Shown: positions 21,001-24,000 of the stretch, in pieces | How positions within the stretch are numbered: position 1 is the first letter of the stretch | Layout: each line of letters starts with the position of its first letter | Position numbers: made by a program | Assembly: GCF_055900595.2 (NCBI RefSeq) | Contig: NZ_PP320290.1 | Strand: one strand, 5' to 3' | DNA: 63,589 nt | DNA from: a plasmid

Positions 21001-24000
21001 AAACGTGCAGCAGCTGGACAGTCGTGCTGAGCTGACCGGAGATGAGATCAGTGCAATTCAGAAACTGGCCGCGGACAGTTCTCGGACCGACATTTGATGA
21101 AATGAATAAGGATATACAAAAGGAGCCCAACTGGTGAGGAAGGGCTCCTTTTAATTACTAGACGTTTTTACTACTTAACTTTCTGTCGGAGTAAACGGAA
21201 AATTAATTTGTTAATCACTGTCAGTATAAGTACCCGATAAACGTGGTGCAACTCCGTATCAGAAATTACCGCCAGTGCTTGAATCCAGCGCCCTGAACAG
21301 GGCTTCATGAGCGGCATCCAGAAGGCGTCCAGGCAGAAGGACATCATTCACGCGGTAACTCTGACCGTTCTGTGTGGTCACGGTGAGGTAATATTGATCG
21401 TCAAACTGCCTATCGGCACCGATATGCACAATGTTGGACGTGTCGATCCAGCACAGGTTTGTGCCTTCCACAGGATGAAGAGGTTTGATTCGGCCTTTCA
21501 GCCATTTCTGCGGGCGTCCCGGCCAGGATTTAATGGTAATGCCGTGCTTATAGTCGCGGGTTCTGGCCACAAAGGCCGCTACTTTATCTTCATCCATCTC
21601 TTTTGCTGAGGTGTTCTCCTTGAAGTAGTACGGATTGAGGTTGTATTGCAGCTCTTCAAATAGCTTCATATACGTCACCTGATCATCCAGGCTTTCCCCC
21701 TGATTTTTCAGGCTGCTGCCCCAAACTTCTTCCAGATTGGCTTTCAGCGCCAGCGTGACCGCCTCAAATTCTTCCTGATGTTTATCGTAGTAGTTGATAT
21801 CCATCGCGTCTCCTGTTGTGTTTATGGCGAATTTGCGGAAATAATATACATAAAAAATGTTCAAATATGAACATTTTCAGGCTATAAATACAGGCAGATT
21901 ATAACAGGCCAGTCCACCAGGATTCGGCCAGGAGCTGAGTACGCATGATAAAGAAACCACTTATTGCCGGCATCATGCTGGTTGTGGCGCACACCGCCGG
22001 CGCTGCGCAGGTTGATGATACCAATCTGCAGCAGATTTATACCGAGGCGGGCATTCAGGGTATATGCAGCGCCGGGATGCTGGCTGTGCCGGAAGGGGCC
22101 AGAGATGAAGTTGTCCCGCAGAACGTCAGACACCTCCTGGTTCAGTGTGCCTATTTCGACGAGCAGCAGTTGCGCCGGCGTGCCGGCCTTCCGGCTCAGA
22201 CATTTAGCCACTGGCGTGACCGCAATGCGGTCCTTAATCTGTCGTCTGACCAGGTATCTGATGCGCTCTGGCTGTCAGCGTGGCGTGATTTCCGGGCACA
22301 ACTGGCCTCGGCCTACCCGGCCCCGGCGGAAAAAAAGGCACAGGGGAAAGAGGCCGTACCCGCCGGCACGAAGCCCGGCACTGAGCATGGGAGTGCGGCG
22401 GATTGACCGGCTTTGACTTGATCCTGTGGCGACGGGGCCTGAACTGGACCCAGGAACGCGCCGCGGCTGAGCTCGGTATCAGCCGTACCAGCCTGGTAAA
22501 ATATGAGGACGGTGAGACAGTACCCCGGACCATACAACTTGCCACCGTCGCGCTGACGCTGAAAGCGGAATGGCCCACCCTGAAAACCATGAGCAAAGAC
22601 AGGCTGCTGCGGCAGCTGAAGTATGAAGTGCTGAGGATCGATAATGAATGAGTCCATCCATGTTGTCGGCTCTTTTATCCTTGCGGGTATCCTGCTGTAT
22701 GGCCTCTGGCAGGGTACACGGCGACGCCGGCGCCGGCACGAACGGAAACAGGCCAGCGCGGTACGTGTGATCGATAAAATTAATACGTTTCCGCATTTCG
22801 GGCAGAAAATTGCCTATCTGCGCAAGATTGACCCGTTTGTGTTCGAAGAGCTGCTGCTTGAAGGCTTTGAACGCCGGGGCTTTGAAGTGATCCGTAACCG
22901 CCGGTATACCGGTGACGGCGGGATTGATGGCCGTGTGAAGATTGATGGCCAGACCTGGCTTATCCAGGCCAAACGCTATACCAGCTATATTGCCGTTGGC
23001 CACGTCCGTGACTTCAGCGACCTGCTGAACGCCACCGGTGCCCGCGGTTTTTTCTGCCATACCGGCAAAACGCGCGAAGGCACCAAATCGCTCATTCGCG
23101 GAGACAGCCGCATGATCCTGGTCAGTGGCCAGAAGCTGCTAGACCTTATTGCCACCGATGCGCCGTTTATCCCGTATCCGGGATACCGGCCACCGACCGA
23201 AATGGTTCATCCTGAACAGGAGACAACATGAAATTCAAAGGATACGTCGCCGCCCTGCCGGCACTGCTGCTGACAGGGTGCGCCATGCTCCCCGGACAGC
23301 CCACCGATTATGACCGCTTCTGTAACGTCTCAGGCATCGCCAGCCACGGCGAAACCTACCGTGTCAGTGACAGCCAGGATTTCTGGTTAACCCCGAACGG
23401 CCGCTATCTCAGCCAGGCTGAGTACAGCAGTCCGGCAGATACGCTTCAGAAACTGACGGGCGTGGTCAGTGGTGAAGATCCTGACCAGGTGCGGAAGAAC
23501 GCCGTCAGGGTAAGGGTGTTCCGCGTCGAGAGTGAAAACAGCCATAAAGGTGCGTGCCTGCCTGTGCGTTATGACGATAATGGCGCACAGCGTAAAATGG
23601 ATTCACTGACTAACGGCCGCCGTATGGTGGTATTCAGTGAAGATGAAGGTCAGTCTGGTCAGCAGATTTACAACAAAAGTCGTGGTACAGGATTCAGTTA
23701 CAGGTTGTTATGAGTGGATTGAAAGGCCGCCGAATCAGCGCGGATATGTTTGCTATGATGTTAAAAGTATCTGCCGGGCAGCTGGTTTTTGCAGCCCGGC
23801 ATGACAAGCCTTTACGCGGACTGACCCTACCCCCTTACAGAATCGAAGGCGGGAAAAGCTGGAGCTCGACCGCCTCCACCCGCAGTATGACGTTTGATAT
23901 GCAGGATGCGGTCGAATTCAGCGAGAAATTTCATAAAATTCAGTCGCCTGACGGCTGATTAGCGGATTTTAAAAAATTGAACACTTTCCCCCTGCAAATT

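Follow-up and report, generated by a model that had tools for sequence, protein, structure and literature searches.

The stretch of DNA analysed here (the window; 63,589 nucleotides, NCBI RefSeq assembly GCF_055900595.2, contig NZ_PP320290.1) is pOXA-48, a conjugative carbapenem-resistance plasmid of incompatibility group L (IncL), and the 2.5 kb around the locus in question are 100% identical to hundreds of pOXA-48-type IncL plasmid records. We analysed its orf14-orf18-resD operon, the third gene of which, orf16, codes for a predicted membrane-tethered nuclease of the Mrr type, and found that the Orf16 family is essentially confined to conjugative plasmids and integrative and conjugative elements (ICEs). 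Taken as a whole, the locus would be explained best as a backbone operon with a membrane-confined nuclease for inter-element conflict, a reading to which we assign a probability of roughly 0.45. The operon itself is known and annotated in IncL/M plasmids: Baffert et al. 2025 (PMC12365149, Table S1) name the open reading frames (ORFs) Orf14, Orf15, Orf16, Orf17 and Orf18, label Orf15 'HTH-XRE' and Orf16 'Restriction nuclease / Host defense', show ResD, ParA, ParB and Nuc after Orf18 in their map, and give 93-99% identity for the orthologues in the IncM plasmid pCTX-M3. What appears to be new lies at the level of the family, namely a widespread membrane-tethered Mrr nuclease that seems specific to conjugative elements and is occasionally accompanied by an excisionase-like partner. 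Among the carriers of carbapenem resistance, pOXA-48 and its relatives in IncL/M and IncN hold a leading place, and about one third of the backbone genes in these plasmids have no assigned role. Positions are given in window numbering; in a 63,589-bp record among the pOXA-48-type plasmids the coordinate is the window coordinate minus 12.

Orf16 (22644-23231, plus strand, 195 aa) matches the Pfam family Mrr_cat (PF04471) with residues 59-169 (nt 22818-23150; E=8e-21, 74.7 bits versus a cut-off of 21), and as the match spans model positions 1-115 of 115 we regard Orf16 as a member of this family. Residues 1-58 consist of a transmembrane (TM) helix and a basic linker, and Pfam shows no further domain there. 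Rule-based hydropathy places the TM segment at aa 4-22 (nt 22653-22709), followed by RRRRRRHERK, the basic stretch covering aa 26-36 (nt 22719-22751). According to hydropathy and the positive-inside rule Orf16 is predicted to be a single-pass protein with its N-terminus outside and its C-terminus inside, so that the nuclease would be located in the cytoplasm, right under the inner membrane. The search for homologues yielded at least 813 proteins, mostly 165-240 aa long, and this family, present in 2,594 plasmid records, has so far been labelled only 'restriction endonuclease'. Nearly all members share the N-terminal TM helix, a basic stretch (R-R-H-x-R-K-Q), a QKIAYLRKIDPFVFEELLLEGFE helix and a YTGDGGIDG...LIQAKRY core. 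A TM segment was found in 69 of 73 scorable homologues from several phyla, these 73 being taken from fetched loci, mostly from the genome-scan loci L016-L095. In a multi-phylum alignment of 51 sequences E68, E69, D91, D95, Q108, K110, R111, and Y112 are invariant. We take E68/E69...D95...Q108-x-K110 to be the E...D...QxK active site expected for Mrr-type enzymes, which, judged from the sequence, is intact in Orf16. The original prediction, a nuclease anchored in the inner membrane whose Mrr-type domain faces the cytoplasm and has kept its catalytic residues, is supported, the topology being that predicted by hydropathy and the positive-inside rule.

E. coli Mrr and other Type IV (modification-dependent) restriction enzymes share the Mrr_cat family and the D...QxK active site with Orf16 and do not need a cognate methyltransferase. 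Orf16, however, is about 100 residues shorter and contains a membrane anchor instead of the N-terminal winged-helix domain that mediates DNA recognition in Mrr; the PADLOC model mREase_IV aligns to it only at profile positions 169-291 of 317. No methyltransferase domain was detected from orf13 to resD (Pfam) and none is present among the annotated features in the ~9 kb on either side. The locus is therefore not a classical restriction-modification (R-M) system of Type I-III, in agreement with what had been concluded from the sequence initially. Defence, also considered in the original prediction, received no support from known system models, as PADLOC-DB v2 gave only partial matches to the nuclease domain of Orf16 (mREase_IV, PDC-S02, ZorD; best E=2.8e-8), generic helix-turn-helix (HTH) matches for Orf15, and no match for Orf14, Orf17, and Orf18. 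Likewise, no NCBIfam family matched Orf14, Orf16, Orf17, or Orf18, no solved structure related by sequence to Orf16 or to the family profile was found, and we found no functional study of an IncN or IncL/M mrr gene in the literature.

Using tblastn we detected Orf16 homologues in 2,594 plasmid records (predicted conjugative, 2,026; IncL/M, ~1,030; other types, ~1,560) and in none of 50,697 phage records. On IncN plasmids the homologue carries the annotation 'mrr', by name only, and is embedded in a korB / orf / kikA / lipoprotein / mrr / 68-aa-orf cluster, and on IncX3-like plasmids it is located close to pir, behind parA and two small genes. In Salmonella, Serratia, and many other Enterobacterales the gene lies inside the transfer operon of MPF_G-type ICEs, where the order SLT, DUF2859, TM-Mrr, (variable small gene), TraD, DtrJ is fixed and gene starts often overlap. 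A gene for a type IV coupling protein (T4CP) is located at most 7 kb away in 50 of 80 loci of a scan of species-representative genomes; homologues also adjoin a Bacteroidetes-type T4CP and, in sphingomonads, a TrwB-type T4CP together with a TrwC relaxase. Relaxase (6), NikA (3), topoisomerase III (3), and MobC (2) are the commonest neighbours in 18 otherwise unclassified loci, T4CP, TraC, and primases being present as well, and no defence family is among the top 25 neighbour families of these loci. Since the family resides on conjugative elements, and neither on phages nor in defence islands, we favour inter-element conflict as the selective context, with rival plasmids, and possibly also phages entering via the type IV secretion system (T4SS), as targets.

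The IncN gene (backbone of R46, N3, and pKOX105) is a true homologue of orf16, with ~57-60% identity over the nuclease domain and the same TM/basic/Mrr_cat architecture, and like orf16 it is followed by a homologue of orf18 (the 68-aa pN3_038) and has a lipoprotein gene in its vicinity, here upstream. In contrast to orf16 it belongs to a different operon (korB/H-NS, kikA/TrbM region) that lacks an XRE gene as well as homologues of Orf14 and Orf17, its lipoprotein being unrelated to Orf17. Complete R-M systems were observed downstream of the IncN mrr/68-aa-orf pair, a type I HsdRSM system at a distance of ~1.4 kb, with hha and a resolvase gene in between (L003, 8254-12654), and an EcoRII system at a distance of ~0.4 kb (L014, 6133-8814), which suggests a hotspot for the insertion of cargo or defence genes.

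In ICEclc, which serves as the experimental model for the MPF_G family, the DUF2859 gene lies directly beside the coupling-protein gene iceD4, and a TM-Mrr gene is missing. This rules out that TM-Mrr is a core T4SS component of MPF_G ICEs and identifies it as an accessory in a variable slot. The adjoining slot between TM-Mrr and traD is variable, too: in some MPF_G ICEs it is occupied by a 257-259-aa protein (L010, 6633-7406; L008, 6595-7374) whose DGNHR motif recalls nuclease domains of the ParB/DndB type and for which no precomputed Pfam family is on record, in other ICEs by small multi-TM proteins.

Two further readings are considered here. According to the first, TM-Mrr proteins would constitute a gatekeeper nuclease class of conjugative elements, placed near the coupling protein and the relaxosome at the inner membrane and destroying double-stranded DNA that enters, or becomes established, at the site of conjugation or the T4SS, i.e. 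rival plasmids, retro-transferred DNA, or the DNA of T4SS- or pilus-dependent phages. Such DNA-level exclusion would be conserved from plasmids of Enterobacterales to elements of Bacteroidota and sphingomonads, with self being told by location and, in some plasmids, with the help of an Orf18-type partner. In this general form we consider the proposal rather unlikely. The second, and the main rival of our explanation, assigns Orf16 to the donor side as an accessory of DNA transfer and replication (Dtr) that acts near the coupling protein on the element's own or on co-resident DNA and not on incoming DNA; it might remove transfer intermediates that have stalled or gone wrong, or keep other plasmids from hitch-hiking. 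The recurrence of T4CP and relaxase genes as direct neighbours in three or more unrelated types of transfer system, the position inside ICE transfer operons, and the absence of the family from phages would all fit. However, insertions in orf16 do not reduce pOXA-48 transfer (log2FC +0.71, not significant), ICEclc is transferred without such a gene, and in IncL/M, IncN, and IncX3-like plasmids the gene is found in maintenance regions, away from the T4CP. Moreover, transfer DNA is single-stranded, and single-stranded DNA is a poor substrate for Mrr-type enzymes. Altogether, we regard a donor-side role as unlikely; if it were true, Dtr modules of several T4SS types would possess, in this family, an accessory overlooked so far.

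Our explanation, a nuclease for conflict between elements, has a mechanistic precedent in SNIPE (PD-lambda-1), a membrane-bound nuclease that cuts phage DNA during injection (PMC13190303). SNIPE is a single-pass, N-out protein with a cytoplasmic GIY-YIG nuclease, spares self DNA due to its localisation, and becomes toxic once the anchor is removed (PMC13190303). Orf16 resembles it in its predicted short periplasmic N-terminus, single TM segment, and cytoplasmic nuclease, and might also spare self DNA by localisation, so that the idea of a nuclease acting on incoming DNA at the membrane, put forward in the original prediction, is now mechanistically plausible. The two proteins differ in other respects, though, as the GIY-YIG nuclease of SNIPE is unrelated to the PD-(D/E)xK nuclease of Orf16 and as Orf16, for which Pfam detects Mrr_cat only, lacks the DNA- and tape-measure-binding domain DUF4041. 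SNIPE, furthermore, is a system of the chromosome or of defence islands, whereas members of the Orf16 family belong to the transfer and maintenance modules that conjugative elements carry, and none of their relatives is found on phages. Sharing neither nuclease fold nor DUF4041, Orf16 is an analogue rather than a member of the SNIPE family. A second comparison concerns ExcA-TraY entry exclusion of IncL/M and IncI plasmids, which, like the function proposed for Orf16, is plasmid-encoded, takes effect at the inner membrane, and targets related DNA on its way into the cell. ExcA, however, is the product of a separate gene near traY in pOXA-48, blocks entry by protein-protein recognition instead of cleavage, and has no sequence relationship to Orf16.

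In a conjugative K. pneumoniae plasmid lineage (L002, NZ_CP034126.1, 5100-6040) three separate, clean internal deletions have removed orf14, orf16, and orf18, and orf15, orf17, resD, and the operator have been retained. The orf16 deletion is flanked by TTTATCC microhomologies and leaves codons 1-12 and 162-193; its junction is present in 288 plasmid records. In transposon sequencing (Tn-seq) of pOXA-48 in E. coli MG1655 orf14-18 and resD were all classified 'NE' with 72-100% of the TA sites hit, being non-essential in the input and transconjugant libraries alike and showing no significant depletion in transconjugants (orf16: log2FC +0.71, adjusted p 0.25). Plasmid-wide CRISPR interference (CRISPRi) in clinical strains revealed a loss of fitness upon silencing of blaOXA-48, repA/repC, pri, korC, H-NS, the orf19-20 operon, and pemI, a list that does not include orf14-18. 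Hence, under laboratory conditions neither the maintenance and transfer of the plasmid nor the fitness of its host depends on the operon, and from the loss in 288 plasmids and the lack of the gene in ICEclc we conclude that any benefit of the nuclease must be conditional. The tolerated insertions in orf15, orf16, and orf18 and the missing CRISPRi signal also weaken the abortive-infection- or toxin-like function initially considered for the locus.

The same null results, i.e. no phenotype in Tn-seq or CRISPRi and natural loss of the nuclease in 288 plasmids, together with neighbours that differ in every backbone, might indicate that the genes have no joint function at all. The locus would then have been assembled by history alone, from a lone restriction nuclease of Type IV-like or orphan character and from ORFs peculiar to the lineage, all transcribed from the promoter that serves resD, and the nuclease would be almost neutral cargo. 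This is quite unlikely in our estimation, because Orf16 is under strong purifying selection (dN/dS 0.13), its catalytic residues are invariant, the TM anchor has been kept across phyla, and tight restriction of the family to conjugative elements is not expected for neutral cargo. Constraint was assessed for the whole operon by comparison with a ~78%-identical relative (L018), resulting in dN/dS values of 0.25 for Orf14, 0.10 for Orf15, 0.13 for Orf16, 0.09 for Orf17, and 0.08 for ResD; for Orf18 dN is 0.14 and dS is saturated. All ORFs of the operon are real genes under purifying selection.

The operon has the layout given in the original prediction, which described a compact operon on a conjugative IncL/M plasmid comprising five ORFs on the same strand from 21945 to 23958. 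All genes are on the plus strand: orf14 (21945-22406, 153 aa), orf15 (22403-22651, 82 aa, TTG start), orf16, orf17 (23228-23713, 161 aa), and orf18 (23710-23958, 82 aa), with successive start/stop overlaps of 4, 8, 4, and 4 nt. Shine-Dalgarno-like motifs precede orf15 (GGGAG), orf16 (GAGGA, 6-nt spacer), and orf17 (AGGAG, 5-nt spacer), and none was seen upstream of orf18. RefSeq/PGAP annotates the same genes, placing only the start of orf18 45 nt further downstream (23755). We favour 23710, since the gene calls of most Orf18 homologues give the full-length protein of 82 aa and the residues in front of the PGAP start (RISAD-) have aligned counterparts in the relatives from IncN and L012. The operon does not end at 23958, as had been assumed: resD (23977-24717, plus strand) starts 19 nt past orf18, the terminator scan yielded no terminator of comparable strength inside the operon, and the transcription unit runs into resD, its sixth and last gene, ending at a strong intrinsic terminator (24775-24801, the feature as mapped being 24775-24811, plus strand) that has a 12-bp stem containing 6 G-C pairs and a subsequent T-run. 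The G+C content of the individual genes from 21945 to 24717 ranges from 52 to 60% (Orf14, 60%), the whole plasmid having 51%.

The start/stop overlaps had been thought to imply a fixed stoichiometry of the products. At least 13 other same-strand gene pairs overlap on pOXA-48, and only 3/4 overlaps are kept in L018 and 2/4 in L012, thus pointing to a compact operon and not to fixed stoichiometry. This bears on the possibility that the five coupled proteins assemble in fixed proportions into a single complex across the envelope, consisting of a periplasmic sensor, a lipoprotein, a membrane nuclease, and two DNA binders, that serves phage defence, exclusion, or abortive infection. Besides the four overlaps, synteny of the five genes in L012/L013, where Orf16 is ~65-70% identical to pOXA-48 Orf16, is in line with such a machine, and envelope proteins are encoded next to the nuclease elsewhere, too (a lipoprotein in IncN, a TM protein in IncX3-like plasmids, and the DUF2859 protein in ICEs). 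These envelope neighbours are not homologous to each other, however, and Orf14 diverges far faster than the other proteins, Orf17 has hardly any relatives, orf14, orf16, and orf18 were deleted in 288 plasmids that kept orf15 and orf17, and insertions are tolerated in every gene. We thus give the five-part complex little chance. The full set together with resD is syntenic only in IncL/M-like backbones (L012/L013, L016-L018), and outside of these only Orf16, and Orf18 in three plasmid backbones, recur, so that the five genes are not inherited as one unit. Co-occurrence beyond IncL/M, as expected in the original prediction, is not seen for the five-gene set; the nuclease does occur there. The five genes are a mosaic and not a five-part machine, with Orf16 as the sole broadly conserved accessory part.

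The predicted properties of the partner proteins agree with the original prediction in that Orf14 is exported, Orf15 contains an HTH (HTH_3, E=2e-7), and Orf17 is a lipoprotein. By rule-based analysis Orf14 has a Sec-type signal (KK, hydrophobic core, AGA|AQ); no match was found in Pfam, NCBIfam, PHROG, or PADLOC. It shares only 43% identity (dN 0.54) with its counterpart in L018 (6301-6726), whereas the five downstream genes are 77-86% identical, as is typical when an exposed protein is engaged in conflict or constraint on it is relaxed. Orf17 exhibits the lipobox ALPALLLTGC (LLTGC) with Ala at position +2 and qualifies as a lipoprotein by rule, and its Cys18 is nearly invariant (≥90%) in the family alignment. 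An exhaustive profile search of 1.84 billion representative proteins retrieved only 19 relatives, and the predicted model is a generic OB-like beta-barrel with only generic OB-fold matches. A kinship with the IncN lipoprotein encoded upstream of mrr was rejected as only the signal peptides align. Orf14 and Orf17 thus appear to be lineage-specific envelope proteins, predicted to be periplasmic and membrane-attached by lipid, respectively.

Orf18 is the only partner that recurs with the nuclease, namely in three plasmid backbones. Its predicted beta-alpha-alpha-beta-beta(-alpha) fold is a winged helix of the MerR superfamily/excisionase type, and the predicted structure matches the excisionases RdfS, AlpA-family, and Xis. 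Orf18 is homologous to the IncN ORF of 68-72 aa right after mrr and to a protein of L025 (hhalign probability 96.4%, E=1.2e-9), and a hidden Markov model of Orf18-like proteins revealed no further members beside the nuclease in ICEs or other contexts. Shared loss in the deletion lineage and co-occurrence outside IncL/M link Orf16 and Orf18. ResD is a tyrosine recombinase (Phage_integrase, 68.3 bits versus a cut-off of 27.1, E=9e-19; XerD/XerC-like matches) for plasmid multimer resolution, and Orf18 could assist this enzyme in the manner of an excisionase, shaping the DNA or setting the direction of the reaction, which would turn the 3' half of the operon into a resolution module. Both the fold of Orf18 and the position of orf18 immediately upstream of a tyrosine recombinase gene here, in L012, and in L018 speak for this arrangement. 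The IncN homologue, however, follows mrr without an adjacent tyrosine recombinase, and the 288-plasmid lineage kept resD while losing orf18 along with orf16, leaving us with low confidence in a dedicated ResD factor.

The divergent promoter region between orf13 and orf14 contains a perfect 10+10 bp inverted repeat, AAAATGTTCA-AATA-TGAACATTTT (21854-21877), that is a candidate operator. A promoter scan detected a divergent orf13 promoter (21871-21843). For the operon we read a candidate sigma-70 promoter by eye, TTCAAA-17 nt-TATAAA (21860-21888, plus strand), which was missed by the scan tool because its -10 hexamer ends in A. The 24-bp palindrome overlaps the -35 hexamers of both promoters. 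It is identical in the deletion variant L002, and L018 retains the operator arms TGTTCA/TGAACA. In L012 the HTH protein is only ~40% identical and a different palindrome is found at the same position. As the palindrome sequence co-varies with the HTH, Orf15 is probably an autorepressor acting at 21854-21877. Orf15 is a member of the HTH_3 family (Pfam, 31.4 bits versus a cut-off of 23, E=2e-7), resembles the phage family phrog_6962 (E=7.5e-21), and gave an RstR-like repressor match below the cut-off. No variant, L002 included, has lost the gene. At 37215-37232 in the leading region, in an intergenic segment upstream of a small orf and ssb genes, the operator half-sites recur almost unchanged (ATGTTCATATTTGAACAA, 1 mismatch). 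This site could be a second target of the operon regulator; statistically, however, it is unconvincing since at least 2 matches occurred in 6/100 shuffles.

A small HTH gene that overlaps the start of a nuclease gene, combined with a palindrome at the promoter, is the layout of the C-protein/restriction endonuclease units of Type II R-M systems, and Orf15-Orf16 shares it. Unlike in these units, orf15 is the second gene of the operon and not the first, a methyltransferase is missing, and the pairing of Orf15 with Orf16 is not conserved beyond IncL/M-like plasmids. The layout, together with weak, sub-threshold similarities to the antitoxins MqsA and HipB, could be explained by an addiction pair of the C-protein/REase or toxin-antitoxin kind, in which the HTH protein restrains a toxic nuclease and loss of plasmid or repressor kills the cell. 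Against this stand the insertions tolerated in orf15 (7/7 TA sites) and orf18 (8/9 TA sites), although the orf15 argument is weakened by possible polarity of these insertions on orf16, and the fact that in other backgrounds the nuclease gene is not regularly accompanied by the HTH gene. In addition, Orf15 has no significant sequence similarity to solved structures, controller proteins included. With the Tn-seq and CRISPRi nulls indicating that Orf15 and Orf18 are not indispensable antidotes, addiction is very improbable. The XRE regulator that is essential in pOXA-48 is encoded by another gene, orf20, which is located downstream of nuc and was required for plasmid maintenance in two 2025 studies, and an identification of Orf15 with this regulator was rejected. 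orf20 is easily mistaken for Orf15, and orf19 and orf20 (27330-28047; 27318-28035 in record numbering) again overlap by 8 nt.

Returning to conflict between elements, we propose the following mechanism. The operon would be transcribed from a single promoter with its -35 hexamer inside the 24-bp palindrome, and Orf15 would bind this palindrome, resulting in autorepression. The TM anchor would hold the Mrr domain at the cytoplasmic face of the inner membrane, thus confining a potentially dangerous double-strand nuclease to the membrane-proximal zone where DNA enters or transfer DNA is handled. Tethered in this way, Orf16 would cut the incoming DNA of rivals, be they competing plasmids or phages, and spare the nucleoid and the plasmid itself. 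Orf18 may supply DNA recognition or regulation, and ResD resolves plasmid multimers.

Several observations weigh against this explanation. The neighbours of the nuclease gene are transfer and maintenance genes and not defence islands, which fits handling of the element's own DNA equally well. A large and successful plasmid lineage has lost the nuclease, and ICEclc does without it. Orf16 has no recognisable DNA-binding or sensor domain for a choice between self and non-self, PADLOC models match it only in the nuclease domain, and an NCBIfam family is absent. Both its nuclease activity and its topology are predicted, the pairing of Orf15 with the operator is deduced from co-variation, and the hexamers of the orf14 promoter were read by eye. 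The modelled fold of Orf18 and its site just upstream of resD would equally fit a directionality or accessory factor of ResD. Finally, we found no challenge of the operon with phages or incoming plasmids in the literature. If Orf16 indeed restricts incoming plasmids or phages, it would shape which resistance plasmids can coexist in one host and affect the success of phage or conjugative-CRISPR therapies against carriers, and the SNIPE principle of discriminating self from non-self by membrane localisation would extend to a second, unrelated nuclease fold and to plasmid conflicts.

Three features outside the operon were also noted. Upstream of it, the N-terminal 57 residues of Orf11 (20366-20953) match the phage family phrog_5219 (E=1.3e-10). 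Further downstream, orf25 (30197-32256), a gene of the DGQHR/DndB superfamily, is split by an IS1 insertion and is a candidate for a disrupted defence or DNA-modification-sensing gene. Between the resD terminator and parA T-rich iterated repeats are present (24823-24975), with at least 3 copies of a CTGTATTTTTC-like element and 2 copies of GTATTTTT(C/G)(C/T)TGAT. They overlap the best promoter-like site of the promoter scan, assigned to parA (24866-24894), and are probably the parC centromere/operator of a ParM-type partition system.

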